A stretch of 64,000 bases of DNA from Callorhinchus milii (taxonomy: Eukaryota), in the NCBI RefSeq assembly GCF_018977255.1, contig NW_024704751.1, positions 16,492,001 through 16,556,000 of the forward strand, written 5' to 3'. Shown here piece after piece: positions 30,642 to 49,919 of the stretch (within the stretch, counting starts at the first letter, position 1; each line of letters begins with the position of its first letter). The position numbers and the translations under genes are program-made. The notes beneath the pieces are model-generated. The model was not told the origin of the DNA. It did no database searches and was given only the letters and a program-made list of their open reading frames with translations.

Positions 30642-33600
30642 TGAGCCCAGAGGTCGGAGCGCCATCAGCGGAGCTCTTCTGTTCCACTCGCGGCCACGCG
30701 ATTGGTGCAGAAAGTGGCCGCTCAGCCCACGGCGACGGGAACCGCTGACGTCCGACTGTTGTGCCAAACGAGCACAGGTTCTGACCGGGTGGATGTCGGG
30801 GGAACCCCCGTCCGCCTCTTCTCCTGCCGCTGCTGCTTCTCTCCGTCCGTCAAGGCCGGTTCTCAAGACCCGTTCTCTTCGACCGTGCCTTTGGTCTCCC
30901 TCACCATCTCTCTGCCTTCCCTCACCCCTACACCACCCCACCACCCCCACCCCCACGCTCGGGCCCGGACACCTGACCGTTCAGCCCTTTGGGACGTCCT
31001 CCCGACGTGAAAGGCGCTCTATAAATGTTGTTTTGTTGTGGTGGTGGTGGCGGCGGCGGCGGCGGTGGTTGTTGTTTCTCCTGATTAAAAGGCCATTTAA
31101 ATCCCATCAATCATTCTTTGTTTAAACTCACCCTCGAGATTCCAATTCATTTGCCGCCCATTTCATTTTGTGTAGAAGGTAGCGGTGCGGAGCCCGTGCT
31201 TCTCTATAACATTCCCTTTAAACTCATTATACTGTACAAATTGTACTGGGTAATGGGCTTCAGTGTGTGTGACCCAGATCCCAGATGTGGGGCTCAGCCG
31301 AGTGTTTCCTGTGTAACCAGATGTCTTTTGTTTGCAGCTGTCCTTACCTGACACGGCACCTGACTCTCGCCATCCCGATCATCGCTGGCTTCCTCTTCCT
31401 GTTTGTGGTCAGCGCCTTACTTCATACCAGCCTCAGTGACCCCGGCATTCTGCCCCGCGCCACACCCGAGGAGGCAGCTCACCTGGAGAGACAGATAGGT
31501 AACAGCAACAACAAGATCACATTGTATAGGGCCTTTCACGTCGGGAGGACGTCCCAAGGCAACTGGCCAGGCAGGAGGCAGCAGGGGGAAACCGGCCTGG
31601 CACTGGGCAGTCTTAGCTTTTGTCCCACTGAAATTTGTGTTCATTGGCCGCGGGAAATGTGCCGGAACCAGGAGCTGCTCTGTGCAGGATGAGGTGTTTT
31701 ATTCTGTCCCTTTGTGTGTCAGCAGCGTCTCTCTTGCAGATAAACTCTGTGGTTTGATTCCTTTTTTCTTGTTGTGCAACCTGGAGGATTCTGATGTATA
31801 TTTGTTTACATGTTGATGTTTTGATATTATGTTTTAAAAACAAGTTTGTTGATCATCATCCCCATTTTGAGGCACAGAGCTGCTGTGGGGTAACTGGCGT
31901 ACGGCACCATTTCACCCACAAGTTGGTAGAAATATTTTTAATCTGATGGGAGTGTTTAAAATTTCACGCAAAATTGGCCTGTGCGAGCTTCACTGCCGAT
32001 GTCCTGCGACTGACCGAGCCTCTGTTTCAGATAACTCCGGGGGATCCAGTTACCGGCCGCCACGCACCAGAGAGGTGCTGATCAACGGGCAGCCCGTCAA
32101 ACTCAAGTATTGTTTCAGTTGCAAAATGTTTCGGCCACCACGCACTTCACACTGCAGTTTGTGTGACAACTGTGTGGGTGAGTAGCAGCCTTGCCCCAGG
32201 CAGGAATGTGCTCTGTGATGTGGCCCCATAGTTGAGCTTTAATTCATAATAATAATCCTTGCATTTGATATAGCGCCTCATCACATCTTCGAGACATCTC
32301 AAAGCATTTCACAGAATACACTGTAAAGTGAATTGACTACATTTTGGTGGGGGGGTGGAGGGGAACACCCAAAAAACGAGTTTTATTGGAATGATCTGAA
32401 TGTTTTCTTTTCCCCCCTCAGAGCGATTTGACCACCACTGCCCCTGGGTTGGAAACTGTGTGGGGAAACGGAATTACAGATTCTTTTACATGTTTCTACT
32501 CTCGCTCTCATTCCTCACCGCTTTCATCTTTGCATGTGTGATAACACACCTCACGCTGAGTAAGTGCTTTACTCTCTCTCGTTAGATAATAAGGCTAATG
32601 AGATGCTGGACCTTATAAGAAGATGGTCTAGAACATAAGATACGGCAGCCGTCAGTCACACTTCATGTGCTGTTGTGTACATATTGGATATTAGGAAGAT
32701 AGACTAAAAAGTGTCTAGCAACAATTCACCAGTTTATGTGGCACAAAGTCAATTAGGGTTATATTCTTTAGAGTGGAAAGGGTGAACAGTTCAATAATGA
32801 ATGGAATTCATAATTGTGGGCGAATGTGTCAGGCATGGGGGTGAGGATTTGGGATGGGGGGTGGGGGGTGTGTAAAGAGAATGGAAGCAGCTGTTAACCT
32901 TTCACAATTTTTTACTCTTCTTCTAGGATCTCAAAGAATTGGGTTGTTAAATGTCCTCCAGGAATCTCCAGCCAGATATCCTTCGAGATATGGGGAGAGT
33001 GTGTTCTTGCTTGTCAGTGTGCGCGTGTTGATCTGTGTTTGCGTATGTGGGTCAGCGTGTATGGGTTTGTGTGCCTCAGTGTGTGAAGCAGTTACGTTGC
33101 GTTACATGGTACTTACCTTGACACCCTCACTGCCCTCGAGCTGTTGATCTGCTTTTTTTCTGTCTGGTCCATTCTCGGTCTTTCTGGCTTCCACACATAC
33201 CTCGTGGCTTCCAATCTGACAACCAATGAAGATGTAAGTACAACTGAATCTTCACATTTGATATAGTGCCTTATCAAGTCGTTGAGATGTCTGAAAGCGC
33301 TTCACAGAATATATTGTAAAGTGTTTTTGTGGGCGAAACACAGCAATGATAATACTAATAATCTTTGCATTTGATATAGTCCTTTCATGTCTTCTCGACA
33401 TCTCAAAGCGCTTCACAGAATAAGCTGTAAAGTGAATTGACCGTATATATATTCTGTGGGCAAAACTCGGCAGCCAATTGCGCACAGCAGTGTCCCACAA
33501 ACCGTCGTGGATTGAAAATTACCAATTTATTATTATTTTGTTTTGGAGGGATTATTATTAGGCTCTGTGTGGAGTAAGAAAACTTGCCCAAGGTTTCACC

Positions 33601-39694: not shown

Positions 39695-40023
39695 CTAGCT
39701 GTGTCCTGGATCACAACTCGAATGTGGCAGCTCTTTGCTCTCTATTTCTTTAAGCAGGTGTGGCTGGTGCTTCTGAAGCAGGCTGTGCAAAATATCCATT
39801 GCATCATTTCCCTTTTTAATCACAAAATTCAGGGTTTCTCTGACTTGTTCTTTCAGGAGGTTGACACTGATAAGCTTCTCGTACTCTGCCTCATTGAGGA
39901 TTTCCCAGTGGCGCAGCTCTTCGATCGAACTGTTGATCTCGGGGATCCTGCAAGTCAGGGTTAGCTTGTTTCTCTGCAGGAAATGCTTGTCTGTCTTCAC
40001 ACTCAACTGTCTGTCTCCTGTGA
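39695..40023 (-). CDS. Terminal exon of the unnamed gene: CARD domain
   Basis: [38 protein letters not shown]...[36 protein letters not shown] follows the six-helix CARD pattern of ASC/NLRP1/CARD8-type CARDs. Confidence 0.88.
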
Positions 40024-43000
40024 CTATAAAAAGACGTCCTCAGCTATGGCTCGCTTCACTCATAGTGGGAAAGTTGAATTTCTATAGTACTTGTGTGAAA
40101 ATATCTCAAAGTATTGCCAAGCATAATGACCGGTTTGTAGGTAAATGAGAATATAATAATAATCCTTGCATTTGATGTAGCGCCTTATCGGGTCTTTGAA
40201 TCCATTAGAGCTTAGGCTTACAAGGTTAACAGGAGCTGAGTGTGATGATTCCCTGCCCCAGTGACTGGTCTGCCTTTCGGGGTGCTGCCGATGAGCCAGG
40301 CTGGCTGTGCGGTCATCTGTAGTGCCCTGGAATATTGCATACCCGCCTGGCTCGGGAACCGGACTATGCGATTCCGGCATCCTGTTGCCAGGCACGCCTG
40401 TTCCAGCTACAAGCCACTCACTTACCTTGACACAGGCAAGAAAGTCACAGAACTTTGTAATCAGCACAAGTACAGGAAAGAGTTGATCAATATTGAAATC
40501 GCTTTACCTTCAGCCTCGAGAACAATATCACCCTCAGGTTTGTTCTTGAGCACGTATTCAATACTGTTTTGACGGCTGATGCGCAAAGGAAGATCACCTG
40601 CAAAAATATAACAATTTTTTTTTGTAAAAGCAGCACAAATCCTGCAAGCCCCAAATTACAGTGACTGGGAAACTGCGAGGGCTCGGCAATCCAGGGGATG
40701 GGGGGCGTTGGAGGGGCGTCTGCGAGATCACCTTCTTCTTTATAAAACACGGCAAGGTTTTCCTCTGGAAATGTCAGTTCCAATTCGGTGCGGAATTGCT
40801 CGTAAGTGATTTCTTGATGGATTCTCAGGATGCAGTGCTGCTCCCCTTGCACTTTGACCAGGATATGATCTACAGGAAGTAAACAAGGTTGGGAAATCAG
40901 TCGGCTGTTCTTTGAGTCAATCCCTCTGAAAGACATTGACATGATCGAACCCTTCTGTGCAGTTGCTGATGGGCCTGGATTGGTACCTGTGCACCTCTCA
41001 ATTTTGGAGTTAGATTAGCTATAGATTAGCTAATAGTATAGATTAGCTATAATTTAATAGAACAGGCTCGATGGGCTGAGTGGCCTATTGCTGTTCCTAT
41101 ATTTCTCCCCCAGCATGAAAGTCAATATAAGTGACAGCTAATAAATACAAATATAGTTCCTAACGTAGCGGTTGAGCGAGCGATGGAATTGTTCTGAGCA
41201 CTAGCCAGAGGATGATGGACAGACAAGAATACCTTGGTTTTCATGCTGGAGCATCTGCTCAGTGAGGACTTCGGACAACACTTCCTGGTCATCATCCTCC
41301 CGCACCAGTTGGAGCTCGAGGGGCCAGGCAGTGACCTGCGACTGGTTCAGCTGCAGCATAAACTCCATTTCCGTCTTGAATTTCATGGTCTTCTGGTAAC
41401 AGAATCTATTAAATAACAGCCTACACTTCTATAGCACCCTCCACGCAGGGTAGTGTCTCAGAGCGCTTATCAGTGGCTTGGTGAGTTTGTCTCCAGTCAA
41501 ATCCTTGCCTGTCCAGCGCATTGGGCGGTCCTCTTGACATGAAAGGCGCTATACAAATGTAATTTGTTGTTGGTAAGTTTATCCTACACCAATTTTTACT
41601 GAGTAAGCCTGGACTGTGAGAAAATCTTTGTGCTTTTTTGGGGGGGATAAAGATTGGGAGAAATCTATGTGTAAGAGCATGTGCAGACTCGGTATCGTTC
41701 ATTCGGTAAATAACACAATAATTTACCTGTGGCATAATAGAGATGAAGTTAGTTTTCATCTTAGACTGAATATGAAGTCTGTAGTACATGTTCTTGACCA
41801 CACAGATTTTTTTTTTGAACACTTGCTTGCAATCTTTGTACTTTTTGTTCAAACTCTAGGGATGGATGGCAACAGAATCCAAAGTAATACACACCGTAAC
41901 AGATACAATACACGCGCTTCAAACTGTGTAATAAATTTCTGTAATTATCAAACTACAATAAACCTGGAATTACCGGACTCTGGGAACTGGGAACTTGACC
42001 CTTGGTGGAGCGGCCAGAAACAGAAATTTTCATTCATGCACATGTGGCTAGATTCCTGCTGGCTCACTCTCCTAACACGCACCACCCTCACTGTGCTCGC
42101 TGGCCTTCAGTGGCCGGGCAAATCGACTTTAACTCAGTTTGAATCCCACAAGCAGAAGAGACCTTATTCTTAGAAGGATGGTCATTATCCCTAAAAAAAA
42201 ACTAGTGAGAGAACCCAGGTTTGATTCCCAAGTGGGGCAAAACCTTAGGTAAATTTCCTTACTCCATATACCTTTGTTAACCTAGCAATGAGTAGGAACC
42301 CAGTTGTTAGTTGATTGGCAGATTGCTTTCCTGAGGTGGTAATACCTCTTCCCCCCAAAACATTTGGTCATTCAATCCACGAATGTTTGTGGGACACTGC
42401 TGTGCGCAATTGGTTGCCGTGTTTCTCCCACAAAATCAATCAATCAATCAATCAATCCACTTTACAATATATTCTGTGAAGTGCTTTGAGACATCTCAAC
42501 AGTGTGCTAAGACTCTATATCAAATGCAAAGATTATCATTATTATTATTATTGGCTATCTTCTGCGCATGGGATTCAAACAATTACATTGCCGATACTGG
42601 AAATTCCGACGAGCTGGACCAGATCTCCCACAAACACCCCCCCCCCCCATCCCCTCCAGTCCAGCTCATCGGAGGTTTAGCTTATTCACATAATCTAATC
42701 TAAAGGTAGCGGAAGATGAAATGAAGTACCTGAACCAAGTCCTCTTTTTCTCGGATCAGATGAAAAAACATAATCATTTTGTTTTGAATGTAAGCCCGGC
42801 CCACGGGCTTGTAGAGCAGGCAGTAAGCCTCACATTTATTCCAATTCGTCAAACATTTGACCAGCATGATGATGGAACAGGAGTCCAGCAGAACCCAGAC
42901 GTGAGTCTCATTGGCAGCGAGTGGCAGGAAAAGCTCAACATTCCCATTTGTGATGTGTGCGACTTGAACTGGAGGAGGGAGGAATAATATCTTGGTCAAT

Positions 43001-46000
43001 CAGGAGTTTAAAAAGTGGGGCAGCAGCAGGTAAATTAATTCTCAGATTAGTTATGGTTAAGAGCGAAGTACTTGTGCTGGTGTGCAGTGCGTTGCGATGC
43101 AATTGAGGCCAGTCTCTGATCAGGGCTCCGGTCTCCTTCACAAAATCCCACAACTCCTCCAACGCTTTCTCTCCTTTAGACAGAGTCAGGTCAACAACAG
43201 CACCAGTATCATTTAGCTCCAGGTAACCGAGTACAAGCTGTGGACGACATTAACACACAAAGTTTACATCGCCGTTTCCACAATTGATGGGATATCAAAA
43301 CTATCAGAAAAAAAGTCTGTTACAGAGGCACAGAGCAATCACCTGTCACCAACGAGGCTTTTATCAGGAGTGAGTTGTGCTGTCCCAGATGAATACTGGG
43401 ACTGGTGACAAAGGCAGCGAAATAGTATTGAAAATTCTGTCATGATCCAATAAACTGAACAGGCTTGATGGGCTGAATAGCCTCCTCCTGTCCCGAGGTT
43501 TCTAATGCATTTGAGTTCAATCTCGTACTCAAACAGGAGGCAATGGATTGGGAACCCACCCTACTTCCTCAATCTAATTCCCCAGCCTACACAAATAGGT
43601 GTGACATGCGTGTCCAGCAACTGATCTCAGCTGCACCAAGTGAGGGCTGGACCAGGGGCACTGATCAAAATGAAATCTGTACCTTCTTCTCTTCATTGTT
43701 GAACAGATTCTGCAGCTTTTGGAATAAAGAGTTTTTCAGATTCAGATATTCCTCCCGGAAGAAAAGCATCAGATTGTCTTTTATGGCAGAAGGGGTGATG
43801 CAGCTTCCTGTAAGAGTAACGCTGTTAAATTAACACCCAACAGAAAGAGTGCAGGATAAAAGTCTCACCACCTGCTTCCCACCCATTGCCATTGGGTAAC
43901 TTACAGTATGCCTTCCCCCTAATGTTAACCCAGTGAAATCCCCTCACAAGTGAGTGGACCAGGGTTCAATTCCCTGGCGGGTGAAACCCTGTAAGTTTCT
44001 GTACATCATGCTCCTCTGTCTACCTAGCAGTAAGTAGGAACCCGGGCGTTAGTCAATTGGCAGATTGCTTTCTGGGGGTAATAATCCCTCAGGAAAAAAA
44101 AATGTGGTCACCCAATCGATGGCTGTATGTGGGACTCTGCTGTGCACAATTGGCTGCCGTGTTTCGCCCACAAATACAATAGTGAATTGTGAAGCACTTT
44201 GAGACAAGTCAATGACGTGATAAGGCGCTATATCAAATATAAGGATTATCAATATTATAAATTAGACACTTATAAACTCCTCCATCCTTGTGTGATTCTG
44301 GAACACCACATACAAGAGAATACTCAGAAACGTACAAAACCAGGAGCAAAGTTAGCCCAGGATCTGAATTAAATGTTTAACAATGCATTGGAAGGAAATC
44401 AGCTCCAACATTGCACTGGGATCATTCTGGCCACTCAGACAGATGCTCAGTAGCAGACTCTGGCACTGCACGGAATATTCTGACATCTGACATTACATTT
44501 GTGGAGTCCTGTAGCTCAGTGGTTAGAGCACTCGCTTTGCAAGTGAGAGACCTAAGTTCAATTCCAGGCAGAGGGCGAAACCTTGGGCAAGTTTCCTTAC
44601 TCCACACAGAGCCTAATAATAATCCCTCCAAAACAAAAACAATAATAAATTGGTCATTTTCAATCTACGGCTGTTTGTGGGACATTGCTGTCTGCAATTG
44701 GCTGCCGCGTTCACGCACAAATATACAGTCAATTCACTTTACAGTGTGTTCTGTGAAGCTCCTCCCGACGTGAAAAGCGCTATATCAATTGCAAGGATTA
44801 TTATTATTATTCTCTTAGTCAAACATGTGTAAAACTGTTCATTTACCAAAAACTTTCAAAATGTGTCCCTGCCATTAAGACCAAAACAGTACCTTCCATC
44901 ATCTTTTATGAAATACATTAAAGAGAAACAAATGTTGTGTTAAATGGTTTAACTTGAGGTTCAGTGTCTGTGATGCTCACCTGAAGATGAGGGGTATTTG
45001 GGAAGAAACAGCAGCAGGTGTGTCCCAGGAGCATCTGTGTGCAGGTCAAAGGCTGGGCCAGCCAACGACATCTGGTCCAAGAAAGCATCCATCTCCTCCA
45101 CTTTCATCTCTCTAACATTTAGTGATTTGTTGCGTTGATCGTAAACAAGACCAAGGTTGCCATGGACCAGTGTGACTACTGGTCGATGCCTATCATCAGA
45201 GCAGGAATACATTAAATGACACAGTGCCACACACTGAATCACATACTCTTACCCAACCACATAGGTGAACCAAAGCCATTGCCCATTTGACTGATTAGTG
45301 CATATGGAATTGTCCTCCAGCACAAACTGCACATTGGAGGGGGGGGCACTCTTATTTTCAAAATAAATTGACAATTTTTTAAAAAAACTCCCAATATTGT
45401 TAGATTGAGTTGTCTATCCTATCCAACTGGACATCTTGTTTCTATTTAGGAATATAGGAACAGTAATAGGCCATTCAGCCCCTCAAGCCTGTTCTGCCAT
45501 TCTATTAGATCATGTCTGATCTCTACCTCAACTCCAATTACCTACCCTTGCCCCATATCCCTTGATCGCTTGATACTCTGACCTAACAAAAATCTATCCC
45601 CCTCAGTATTGAAAATTTGAATGGATCCAACATCCACAGCCATTTGGGGGAGAGAGTCCCAGATTTCCACTACCCTTAGTGTGAAAATGTTTCTTAAGAA
45701 ATGAAACAGTCCATCTGTCCTGATCAGGATCCTACAGACATTCAGCTGAGTCTGGAGACTTTGCTGCATTTACAAATCGCTGTTAAAACAAACAGAAACT
45801 GAGCCATGGGGTACCTTGAGGCCACTCACCCATCTCGCTGCCTGGACTTGAGCTGCTGCTTATAGCCTTGATTACCATCAATCACTCGGATAATGTCCAT
45901 GTTTGAAACCACATCTGAAAGAAGATGTGAGAGAGTTTCCTGACCAACAATCCCCCAAAACGAATTGATCTTCTCATGGCTGTTTGTTGGGCATCGTTGC

Positions 46001-48404
46001 GTGAAAATTGACTGCAACCTTTGTGTACACACGCACAGTATCTATACTTGACAACAATTACCTTGGAAGCGCTATCAGACGTTTTAAAAGTTATAGACGC
46101 TTTAATCAAACACAAGGATTCTTGGTGGATTGCTATTCCGGGGGTAACAATCCCTTACAAAAAAAGAAAATTTGGTCACTCAATCCACGACTGTTTGTGG
46201 GACGCTGTTTTGTGCATAATTGGCTGCCGCATTTCACCCGCAAAAATATACAGTCAATTCACTTTACAGTATATTATTGTGAAGCGCTTCGAGACATTTC
46301 AAACATGAAAAGGCACTAGATCAAACGCAAGGAATACTAATTATATATAGCATTACATACCAACCGCCAATGCTGCCCCCACCACTAGGTTTAGCTGTGG
46401 ATAACACTTGTATTCCCGGCCTCTGGAAAGGAGCAGGAAGCACAGCTCTGTGAATGCCACACCACGCACCTCAATCATTCTCTTCAGAAGGTGGAACATG
46501 CGTTGCTGATGGTTGTACCAGGAATCCCTTGCTGTCTCCTCAATGTCTCGATCACTGAAATCAAGGTCTCTGGCCACTGTTGTCCACTCATTGGACAGAG
46601 TCCCTGACAATCGGAACAGCCATGGATCAGCAGGTGAAGGGGTTTTAAAACCTTCATGATTCCAAATAATTGAGTCCAGATGGTGGTTTGCATGCAGCGG
46701 GATGTGGGGAAGGTCGACTGAGTCAGGGTCCAGCACAGTTACTGCACAAAGGTGAAAAATAGTTTATTGTGAATTGCTTACATGTCTCACGCTTACATTC
46801 TCTGCCACTTGAACGCTTTCTCACACTCGCTTACTTGCTCTGACAGTGGCCGCTCTTTCAGCCACTACGCACCAAAACTCTGGAACACTCTTCCTCTATC
46901 CCTCTGCCCTTGCCCCTTCCTTCCTCATCTTCAGATCGTACCTGAAGACCTTCCTGTTCGACTGTGCCTATGGTCACCTCTCCCCTTCCCCCCCACACTG
47001 GCTCGATGTCGTGCTCTGCCACTATCAAGCGCAATGGGACCCTACCCTGTGTGAGGGGCGCTACGTAAATGCAAGTTGTTGTTGTTGAACACACTTGCTA
47101 AAATTCGCACACTCACTCGCAGTTTGCTGCTGAGTCATGGTATCGGGGTAGCTGCTCCTCAGCTCTCGGCTGATGTGTGGAAAGCCTCGGGCTGAGCAGA
47201 GTGTGAGGAAGGCATTGGCTGCCGTGGGACCGTACCACACCACCATGTCCGTCTTCTGAGCTGCCATCTTTAAAAATGACTTAATATTGTATCGCTCCTG
47301 CAGAAGAAAGAGGAAACTGGGAATAATTAATTGTGAGTGTCCAGGAGTGTGGCAATGAGTAGGAATCTCAATCCCCTCCTGTCATATTCTTCACAGAAAG
47401 GCACAATCAAATGACTCTATGATCTGGAATGCACTGCCTAAAAGTGCGGTGGAAGCAGATTTAATAGTAGGTTTCGAAAGGGAATTGGATTGGGACTTGA
47501 AAAGAAAAAATATACAGGACTGCGAGTAAGAGTGGGGGAGTGGGACTAGTTGGATAACTCTTTCAAAGAAGGTTGTGGGTTCAAGGTATCCGAGGACTTG
47601 ATCTCACATCCAGGCTGACACTTCAACAATTAAAGGGGGGGAACACTGCATTATCAGACATGTTGTCTTTCAGAAGAGATGTCAAACCGAGATGTTTCTC
47701 CTCATATTCTGGTCAACAATTCTCCAGATAAACTGGTCGACATTTGGAAAACAAATCCACATTAAACAAAAGGATGTACCTCCAGGAGGTAGAAATTAAC
47801 GCACCGTGATAAAGGTGTGCTTCTGGAGTAGCATCTTTGCATTATTAACCGCCTTGGCCCATCTGATACCTAAGGAGAATGAAACAAGTTAAATCACTGG
47901 CTGATGAAAAGCTTGACATACATTGAGGGGGACAGCATGGAGTTACCCAGAGTTACAGGCAGGAAGATCTTGTGTCCCTGGAGATGGTGGAAGGTTCGGT
48001 ATTTCTGGTGTGGTCGCTTCAGAGACACAAGGAGCGCATGCAACAGCTCCCGTTTACACCACTGCATTTTGTCCTCCGGGATTGAGCCACCGCTGAACCT
48101 CTCTTGCTGAAGCATCCGAAACAGCTCCTGGTAAAAGTCTCCTCTCTTCTCTCTGATCCAGTGCTCTGCCAGATCCCTCATGTCTGTAGGGAACTCTGGG
48201 CAGCAAGTGATTAAGGAAGCAAAGAGCTGCAGGTCCAACTTATTGACATCCAAATCTCCAGCTATTTGGATAGACATCTGTAACAGATTGCCTGATGGAA
48301 AGGCAACATTAGCACAATTACTTGGACATCTGCTTATATTGGACGCTATTCCTAATCTAAGATCCCAGATGAGATTCGTGCCCATCTCTCCTCCAGCCCT
48401 CCCT

Positions 48405-48436
<32 letters not shown>

Positions 48437-49919
48437 GAATGCAAAAATAATATTGTACCTATTTCTTGATCTTGATGCAGTAAATCCAAATAAACCTTTT
48501 GGAAGCTTTCAAGGCTAATGCTGGATAAATATTCATTGCTCACTCGCATCAGAGCTTTTGCAACCTCCGCCAGGGTTTGGCCTCCGTGCTTACAGAGGTC
48601 TTCCAGCTCCTGCAGCCATCCTTTATTTGTCGGACACCCGGAACTGGTGCAGAGAGTGGGTCCCATCTCCAGCTCTGGCTTCAGCTGCTGTAGTAATGGC
48701 CTAATGTCACCTTCACAAAGACATCAAACACAAAAACCTCAACGTTTCGTAAGAACATAAGAATTTGCTGAGCGAAAGGTCCATCCATCATCCAAGTCGC
48801 CTTCCATCGTCCTGGCAGTCGCTTGACATGTCTTGTCCCAAACAACGTATTGTATTCTGAGATATTATTTCCTAACAGAAAACTATGTAATTTGTTCTTG
48901 AAAGAATTAACACTTTCTGCTTCCACTGTGGGGTCAAGAAGCTGTGGTGTCTGTGTCACCATCGCGGTGAGGGTTGAGGAAGTGGTTGGGAAATCTGAGG
49001 GCATTCGCACAGAATCGAAGCGGAACAAAGTGCTTTGTTCAATTTCATTTCATTTCCGAACAAACGCAATGAATGAGAAATATCTCCATCGCCCCCTCCC
49101 CCCCCACACCCCTACCCCCACCCCCACCCCCCACACACACACACCTGGGACTACACTCTGTGCCAAACCAGGTCACTCTGCCCCCCATCCCCACCCCACC
49201 CAGTGATTCCTTCTGCTTTGCTTCTCGTAACTAACTCCTGGTCTCAGCCTTACCTCCACCTGCTCACACTCCCTCCCTCCCCCCTCCATCCCTCTCTCTA
49301 TCCCTCTCCTCCCCTTCCCCCCTCCCTCCCTCTCCTCCCCTCCCTACCTCCATCCATCCCTCCCCTCCCTCCCTCTTCTCCCCTCCCTCCCTCCATCCAT
49401 CCATCCCTCTATCCTCCCTCCCTCTCNNNNNNNNNNNNNNNNNNNNNNNNNNNNNNNNNNNNNNNNNNNNNNNNNNNNNNNNNNNNNNNNNNNNNNNNNN
49501 NNNNNNNNNNNNNNNNNNNNNNNNNNNNNNNNNNNNNNNNNNNNNNNNNNNNNNNNNNNNNNNNTCCCTCCCCTCCCATCCCTCTATCCCTCCCTCTCCT
49601 CCCTCCATCCATCCCTCTCCTCCATCCCTCCCTCTCTCCTCCCCTCCCTCCCTCCCTCCCTCCCTCTCCCCTCCCCTCTCCCCCCCCCCGGCAGCCACTC
49701 ACCCTGTGCTGTGTGCAGTTGCTGGAGGCAGCCGATGACTCCGGTCTCCAGGGAGTCCATGAGATCGATCCCCACCGACAGATACCCCGAGTCCATCGAT
49801 TCCCAATCGCAGTCGTCCCCGTGTGTGAGGGTCAGTTTGGCCCCGAGGCCGCGCCCCCCCGACCCGCTGTCCTCCCGCCCGCACTTGGTCCTCTCTAACC
49901 GGACACGCGCCGTCGACAT
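39695..49919 (-). CDS. Unnamed multidomain NLRP1/CARD8-like FIIND-CARD protein (degron - PYD-like - Death - ZU5[CARD insert] - UPA - PB1 - CARD), about 1036 aa
   Basis: 16 GT-AG exons splice into one open frame of 3111 nt: 49919-49703, 48710-48459, 48291-47947, 47869-47805, 47297-47117, 46741-46361, 45914-45830, 45189-44981, 43807-43683, 43237-43072, 42968-42730, 41855-41727, 41392-41233, 40869-40732, 40597-40508, 40023-39695 (TAG). All phases are compatible. Minus-strand AATAAA at 39464-39459. Confidence 0.85.
40508..40869 (-). CDS. Two exons of the unnamed gene encoding a PB1-like domain
   Basis: [46 protein letters not shown]|[30 protein letters not shown]: Lys on strand beta1 and OPCA-like YKEEGD. 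Confidence 0.72.
41233..45189 (-). CDS. FIIND (ZU5+UPA) exons of the unnamed gene, with a CARD-like insert
   Basis: LGLVY...AGPAFDL...LFLPKY (ZU5 N-half), [15 protein letters not shown]...HVWVLLDSC|SIIMLVK...CLLY...FHLI (cleavage region), YRL...[24 protein letters not shown] (UPA end). Confidence 0.82.
42200..42551 (+). mobile_element. tRNA-derived SINE, longer subfamily, diverged
   Basis: B-box remnant, gtaggaacccagttgttagttgattggcaga segment, (TTA)n tail. Confidence 0.75.
43955..44250 (+). mobile_element. tRNA-derived SINE, longer subfamily, diverged
   Basis: GGTTCAATTCC B box and shared body and tail. Confidence 0.75.
44501..44811 (+). mobile_element. tRNA(Ala)-derived SINE with an L2-like tail, full-length copy
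   Basis: A box TAGCTCAGTGG, TGC anticodon-like loop, B box GTTCAATTCC, tail gcgctatatca..tgcaagga(TTA)n. Near-identical to the copy at 57439. Confidence 0.9.
45445..45700 (-). mobile_element. CR1-like LINE 3' fragment
   Basis: [16 protein letters not shown]...F..E.DRFL and tail homologous to 51800-52030. Another fragment near 48756-48950. Confidence 0.75.
46130..46340 (+). mobile_element. 5'-truncated SINE copy
   Basis: Shared body: caatccacgactgtttgtggg...aattggctgccg...actttacag. Confidence 0.72.
46361..46741 (-). CDS. Death-domain exon of the unnamed gene
   Basis: [69 protein letters not shown] matches the DD pattern W..lAR.LgFS..dIe.i......eq...mL..w....G..at...L...L...gR. Confidence 0.82.
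46800..47087 (+). mobile_element. L2 LINE 3'-end fragment
   Basis: [16 protein letters not shown]...LKTFLF with tail aaatgcaagttgttgttgtt. Similar fragments at 20650-20895 and 61140-61410. Confidence 0.78.
49427..49563. other. Assembly gap inside a C/T-rich low-complexity tract (49270-49690) in intron 1 of the unnamed gene
   Basis: N run flanked by CCCT/CCAT repeats. Confidence 0.97.

Follow-up and report, generated by a model that had tools for sequence, protein, structure and literature searches.

A predicted CARD-like domain nested in the ZU5 subdomain of a FIIND protein of Callorhinchus milii

In the chimaera Callorhinchus milii, a FIIND-encoding gene carries two exons between the halves of its ZU5 subdomain. 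This raises the question of what these exons encode, how they came to lie there, and how a protein built in this way would work. The gene lies in a stretch of 64,000 nucleotides (RefSeq assembly GCF_018977255.1, contig NW_024704751.1, positions 16,492,001 to 16,556,000), referred to as the window, and the coordinates of the features below are positions in it.

Gene model and domain order

The following features of the gene are relevant here:

39695..49919, minus strand: 16-exon gene of Callorhinchus milii (read from 49919 to 39695), with AG/GT ends throughout
49703..49919, minus strand: exon 1, start codon and DSGxxS motif, the latter also found in Heterodontus, Stegostoma and S. torazame proteins
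47117..48710, minus strand: exons 2 to 5, N-terminal region of about 280 residues without a family match, 32–44% identity across the family
46361..46741, minus strand: exon 6, death-domain-like (DD-like) module
44981..45189, minus strand: exon 8, coding for the N-terminal half of ZU5 up to the ancestral phase-1 FIIND intron and carrying LPK instead of LPH
43683..43807, minus strand: exon 9, covering the first half of the insert with predicted helices 1 and 2 and the start of helix 3
43072..43237, minus strand: exon 10, covering the second half of the insert, where the remainder of helix 3 and helices 4 to 6 are predicted, and the linker into ZU5
42969..43071, minus strand: intron 10, 103 nt
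42730..42968, minus strand: exon 11, which codes for the C-terminal half of ZU5, the variant cut site SC|S and the start of UPA
42955..42957, minus strand: His680, equivalent of CARD8 H270
42874..42879, minus strand: Cys706-Ser707, equivalent of CARD8 F296-S297
41233..41855, minus strand: exons 12 and 13, remaining UPA
40508..40869, minus strand: exons 14 and 15, PB1-like domain between UPA and CARD
39695..40017, minus strand: exon 16, C-terminal CARD and stop codon

The gene model forms a single open frame of 1034 codons, in which the domains follow one another as unclassified N-terminus, DD-like module, ZU5-N, insert, ZU5-C, UPA, PB1-like domain, and CARD. It is identical to the RefSeq prediction P0162 (Callorhinchus milii LOC103179628) over the first 798 residues, after which only two one-residue splice choices differ. 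A later RefSeq version of LOC103179628, P0010, comprises the last 192 residues only. The neighbouring genes encode ARID, PIG-V, DHHC, and GPN-type ATP_bind_1 domains, and between positions 32000 and 56000 the gene stands between the DHHC and the GPN-type genes. The human counterpart is the block ARID1A-PIGV-ZDHHC18-SFN-GPN2, with SFN at the position of the 16-exon gene.

Among the domains of this gene, only the terminal CARD passes the curated Pfam cut-off (E 1.3e-9). The best solved match of the family profile for this domain is the CARD of CARD8, with E 3.4e-12. The DD-like module (Pfam Death, E 0.0038), exon 11 (positions 89–125 of Pfam FIIND, E 0.0036) and the PB1-like domain (Pfam PB1, E 0.02 in the 16-exon gene and 0.0067 in P0003) all stay below the cut-off. 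The UPA model matches the UPA of rat NLRP1 with Z 14.3 and rmsd 3.5 over 125 aligned residues. For the N-terminal region of about 280 residues, neither a Pfam match nor a solved relative was found, only a weak RIPK1 row just downstream of it. The DSGxxS motif of exon 1 resembles a beta-TrCP phosphodegron. The DD-like module is 58–64% identical across the family, and its exact exon is present in a contig piece. This exon (46741-46361) is symmetric, phase 1-1, and is missing from the Heterodontus isoform P0001. The PB1-like domain is 54–64% conserved in the shark orthologues and could supply a second polymerisation route.

Position, splicing and distribution of the insert

Exons 9 and 10 agree with the original prediction in coordinates and translation. 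They have AG/GT ends, measure 125 and 166 nt (291 nt, 97 codons), and show the predicted phases of 1 in, 0 between, and 1 out. The distance from the proline of the LP motif to the histidine of QVAH is 108 residues in the 16-exon gene. Of 22 plain FIINDs, chosen by pattern from the hit set, 20 have a distance of 19 residues, and the remaining two have 16 and 17. From 108 versus 19 residues, a net insert of about 89 residues is obtained, which corresponds to a single death fold in size. MAFFT places a matching gap at the insert site in 23 plain FIINDs.

The plain FIIND genes of the C. milii genome, located on C8 and C11, share a phase-1 intron seven codons past the proline of the LP motif, and intron 8 of the 16-exon gene lies exactly at this site. 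Between the intron and the histidine, exon 11 holds 4 codons, compared with about 10–13 in the plain FIIND genes of C. milii. The ancestral intron is therefore taken as the entry site of the insert, with the 3' boundary now inside the former downstream loop. Of the plain FIIND genes of this genome (L011-L017), C8 carries a cluster of three and C11 a single one.

Splicing was assessed in contigs from four runs whose RNA status was guessed by the tool; none is recorded as RNA, and expression level and tissue are therefore not claimed. The start of one X3 contig piece coincides with the exon-10 donor 43072, with 75 further letters beyond it, and a variant in X1 stands 68 letters away from a piece end consistent with 43072. 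Spliced pieces across exons 4–7 and 15–16 occur in the X1 and X2 contigs, and one X2 contig continues through the exon-10 donor into intron 10. This intron is open in frame throughout; its retention would shift the frame and lead to a stop at codon 721, so that the protein would end 46 codons past the insert. Among the contigs listed, none spans exons 8–11, and the 15 joints listed of 731 all lie at repeats and are too few to judge skipping of exons 9 and 10.

According to the original prediction, in-frame skipping of both exons would restore a plain ZU5. The skipped form does stay open (938 codons), but its Pro-to-His loop has 11 residues, 8 short of the usual 19, since 4 codons of exon 11 precede the histidine. 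Moreover, skipping occurs in none of the 16 predicted proteins covering this region, isoform sets of 3, 4, 2, and 2 included, and the proposal is thus not borne out. Nor are the phase-1 flanks of exons 9 and 10 a special sign, since 10 of the 15 introns of the gene are of phase 1.

Database searches returned 17 family proteins, all of which are predictions. The insert region is covered by 16 of them, P0010 being excluded from this count as it does not reach that far, and all 16 contain the insert with a length of 91–101 residues. They represent 9 genes from 8 chondrichthyan species, chimaera or shark only. Three S. torazame isoforms carry 28 extra residues at the exon 10/11 junction. In the C. 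milii genome, the insert is also present in two intronless paralogues on G000:C1. The first, L007:5753-8773, is an open frame of 1006 codons, and its insert is identical to that of the 16-exon gene at 31 of 96 positions; the second, L006:4526-8041, carries a single in-frame stop as well as a 3' frameshift. The two are inversely oriented, differ at 6 of 395 codons compared, and possibly represent a retrocopy that later duplicated.

In a tree built on the FIIND columns minus the insert, a branch with 100/100 support divides the 9 insert-bearing genes from 22 plain FIINDs; P0120 had been dropped as too short. The 16-exon gene forms one group with four shark genes (support 99/98 and 100/99 in two trees). 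A topology joining the two chimaera genes, both of which have long branches, was rejected with p-AU 0.001. The simplest reading is that the insert was gained once, before the chimaera-shark split. Identity to the shark orthologues amounts to 45–51% for the insert, 47–52% for ZU5-N, 46–48% for UPA, and 55–57% for the terminal CARD. In the second shark clade, identity to the 16-exon gene is 15–22% for the insert and 27–35% for ZU5-N and UPA.

A search with exon 10 alone found a longer protein in none of 79 candidates, and the family-profile search returned only P0003 among 7995 candidates scored, so that the taxonomic range given here is to be read as a minimum. Of the 5 hits that the whole-library search yielded at E up to 1e-30, four are chondrichthyan family proteins. 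The fifth, P0009, matched through its CARDs. Weak hits in the C. milii genome itself (L004, L005, L021-L023) were discarded as unrelated or repeat-like.

Predicted fold and cleavage residues

The original prediction saw a resemblance to CARD helices 4–6 in the insert and proposed modelling of residues ~580–675 and of the whole FIIND. In the AlphaFold models, a death fold is indeed predicted for the insert, and the ZU5 halves rejoin around it. Folded alone (9 sequences), the insert of the intronless paralogue L007 forms six helices with pLDDT 73.8 and pTM 0.57. Compared with 48,161 chains, this model has CARDs in its top seven rows, and its top 20 consist of 16 CARDs and 2 PYDs among others. 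The Drosophila apoptosome row was counted among the CARDs, and 6k9f denotes the CARD8 chain. The best matches are the CARDs of CARD8 (Z 7.5, rmsd 2.9, 82 aligned) and caspase-1 (Z 7.4, rmsd 2.8, 84 aligned), Z values in the range of 7–8 that the structure tool calls non-specific for helical bundles and that are thus moderate. PYDs score about 1.5 Z below the CARDs. Foldseek also places the caspase-1 CARD first, with E 0.32.

For residues 505–851 of the 16-exon gene protein, the model (32 sequences, pLDDT 79.5, pTM 0.49) shows ZU5 strands, six helices, ZU5 strands again, and UPA in this order. In ten-residue blocks of helices 1–5, pLDDT is 74–96; it falls below 50 at both junctions and at the cut site, and the packing of the domains is not fixed by the model. 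Of the 50 matches listed, 14 fall on the insert; every one of these is a death fold (two judged by chain identity), and 10 are CARDs. One PYD at Z 7.1 is level with the CARDs. Human NLRP1 ZU5 aligns over both ZU5 halves with Z 7.8 and rmsd 3.6 over 104 aligned residues.

Sequence comparison gives a fainter signal. Pfam CARD (PF00619) does not match the insert in searches with, among others, the 16-exon gene, P0003, and the insert profile, and hhalign assigns a probability of 11% to the comparison of insert and CARD. The Atlas search with the insert gave leads all under 0.9 and no CARD cluster, and no CARD was among the matches of the PDB profile search. The single-sequence PDB search with the FIIND region of the paralogue returned no match. 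The mean score of the insert profile is 2.94 against 270 CARDs, a set collected by means of the terminal CARD of the family itself, which may have biased it, and −0.35 and 1.49 against shuffled or reversed CARDs and 1.32 against 67 PYDs; 4 of 400 block-shuffled profiles reach the mean CARD score of the insert. The weak profile match between insert and CARD spans helices 2/3 to 5. Several matches were set aside as noise: the best PDB row of the insert profile, which is NLRP4F in a part other than its PYD (domain E 2.9), and the Pfam matches RE_Bpu10I and MINAR1_N. A recent internal duplication from the terminal CARD gains no support from direct alignment of the two, which is at chance level (217 of 1000 shuffles as high). 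The complex prediction for insert and terminal CARD gave a score of 0.00, but the controls were unfolded and the alignment was not used, so that it carries no weight either way. Since the sequence evidence is thin and the Z values are moderate, the insert is termed CARD-like and not a member of the CARD family. The likeness to CARDs inside ZU5 thus stands, as a modelled six-helix death fold nearest to CARDs; its restriction to helices 4–6 does not, as the predicted fold takes up the whole length.

Residues that matter for autocleavage have been defined in CARD8, namely S297, H270, H252, F296, and E279; F296H is severely defective, and the effect of H252 is read as one on stability (PMC3210808). 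In rat NLRP1, F968 lies in a hydrophobic pocket and mutation of H942 abolishes cleavage (PMC8081665). In the 16-exon gene, H680 and S707 stand exactly 27 residues apart, which is the canonical spacing. The H252 equivalent is His in none of the 9 family genes versus 23/23 plain FIINDs (alignment A3) and Lys in the 16-exon gene. Likewise, Glu at the E279 position is found in 0/9 versus 19/23, with Phe in the 16-exon gene, and Phe at the F296 position in 0/9 versus 20/23, two plain FIINDs having Leu. The family residue at the F296 position is Cys in four genes, His in four, and Leu in one, namely L007. The H270 equivalent is retained as His in 6 of the 9 family genes versus all 23 plain FIINDs, and the nucleophilic Ser equivalent to S297 in all 9. 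At the F296 position, His is found in all four shark orthologues, three of which also have Gln at H270.

The original prediction assumed that the insert stays on the N-terminal fragment after autocleavage. This is doubtful, as the F296, H252, and E279 equivalents are lost in all 9 genes, with His and Ser kept in the 16-exon gene. Some residual or retuned cleavage of its protein is possible from the sequence, because the H270 and S297 equivalents are 27 apart, the Ser is invariant, and the Cys at P1 is still hydrophobic.

Comparison with known proteins and possible function

At its C-terminal end, the protein is similar to CARD8 and NLRP1, with a modelled ZU5-UPA fold, a CARD8-like terminal CARD, and the His-Ser spacing of 27. 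It differs from both in the roughly 89 extra residues of the ZU5 loop, in SC|S versus SF|S, in the lost H252 and E279 equivalents, in the PB1-like domain between UPA and CARD, and in its N-terminus, which consists of a DD and an unclassified region, not of a disordered tail or NACHT-LRR. With the ZU5-UPA-DD proteins UNC5B and ankyrin, the modelled fold is shared (3g5b, Z 10.3; ankyrin ZU5, Z 6.2, both halves). The sequence is of FIIND type (Pfam FIIND, weak) and not PF00791; in UNC5B and ankyrins the DD follows UPA, and none of those inspected has a death fold inside ZU5. UNC5B and the ankyrins are not known to cleave themselves. As in L007, Leu is the UNC5B residue corresponding to CARD8 F296 (PMC3210808). 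The insert model shares six helices with the CARDs of caspase-1, NOD1, NLRC4, and CARD8 (rmsd 2.7–3.9 over about 80 residues). Unlike these, the insert is below Pfam detection, has 12–23% identity to them and no clear parent CARD, and is tethered at both ends inside another domain, whereas the known CARDs compared are terminal.

FIINDs fused to varied domains are described in the sections consulted of three papers, none of which has a domain nested inside FIIND there (PMC11760013, PMC8195603, PMC11258412). The 41-residue insertion at the C-terminus of the opossum FIIND is a different case (PMC3210808). A full-text literature search, judged by titles and starts of abstracts, returned no description of the family or of a ZU5-nested domain. 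No paper pairing FIIND with elephant shark was found in the full-text search, but comparative gene lists could include the locus. The locus thus represents a real and conserved domain-in-domain architecture in a known protein class, which is apparently undescribed.

On balance, the protein is probably an uncut or poorly cut signalling scaffold in which a predicted six-helix CARD-like domain has been added to the ZU5 loop. This account takes from the sequences the insert, its place at the ancestral intron, its presence in every family protein covering the region, and the lost residues, and from the models the predicted death fold and the predicted closing of ZU5 around it. The structural part, as modelled, is considered highly probable and much firmer than the functional part. 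Since three of the residues on which CARD8 self-cleavage depends are missing from the FIIND, an uncut scaffold is likely. ZU5-UPA would stay one chain, as in UNC5B and ankyrins, and would form a rigid hub. This hub would present three death-fold surfaces, the N-terminal DD, the internal CARD-like domain, and the C-terminal CARD, together with the PB1-like domain. The internal domain may act as a fixed extra docking or capping surface that tunes recruitment by the CARD8-like terminal CARD, and control may be exerted via turnover of the whole chain, not via fragment release. The kept H270 and S297 equivalents, with Ser in 9/9 genes and a hydrophobic Cys at P1 in the 16-exon gene, argue against this account, and so do the plain FIINDs with Leu at P1 (2/23) or without E279 (four of 23). 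The DSGxxS motif is compatible with both an uncut scaffold and a degrade-and-release sensor, and its N-terminal conservation would suit the latter.

Such a sensor, resembling CARD8 and carrying a built-in brake as in the original prediction, is rather unlikely but is the main rival. It would be cleaved at C706|S707, the insert on the N-terminal piece would cap the terminal CARD, and degradation would free UPA-PB1-CARD to polymerise. His680 and Ser707 at canonical spacing, a terminal CARD nearest to that of CARD8, and DSGxxS in the 16-exon gene and three shark orthologues speak for it, and in NLRP1 and CARD8 the C-terminal piece is set free when the N-terminus is degraded (PMC11760013). Against it stands the loss of the F296, H252, and E279 equivalents in 9/9 genes; moreover, the insert is kept in shark orthologues with Gln for H270 and His for F296, so its job there cannot need cleavage. 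Less probable still is that the insert is what remains of a death fold, degenerate and purely structural in role: it would shield or stabilise the surface of ZU5, or keep away partners such as DPP9, without binding any CARD. The missing Pfam CARD match, the faster drift of the insert in the second shark clade (15–22% versus 27–35% for ZU5-N and UPA), and its lower conservation among orthologues relative to the terminal CARD (45–51% versus 55–57%) would agree with a relic, but all six helices are predicted in two paralogues that are 32% identical, and the length of 91–101 residues is held in all members. Improbable to a similar degree is the boldest proposal, that cartilaginous fishes remodelled a CARD8-type sensor around a functional CARD set into its autoprotease domain. 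By capping the terminal CARD, or by taking over the caspase-1 filament, this nested CARD would serve as the off switch in place of self-cleavage and DPP9. Activation would then come from an N-terminal phosphodegron and from polymerisation via PB1, which would make the protein a cleavage-independent FIIND inflammasome regulator. That exons 9 and 10 form an alternative cassette, whose skipping switches the protein to a plain FIIND, is scarcely credible. Both flanking introns are of phase 1, the skipped form is open, and another symmetric exon, that of the DD, is missing from one Heterodontus isoform, but 0/16 proteins skip, the loop would be 11 and not 19 residues long, and the insert is fixed in the intronless paralogues.

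The ZU5-nested death fold, predicted in two paralogous lineages and probably predating the chimaera-shark split, indicates that a complete domain can be accommodated in this loop and that a FIIND protein can bear a signalling module in the middle of a domain. The family also constitutes a natural series of cleavage-site states on one scaffold, with His or Gln at one position and Cys, His, or Leu at P1. It makes testable whether a FIIND-CARD protein works uncut and what the uncut form does. The family bears on the evolution of inflammasome sensors in vertebrates.
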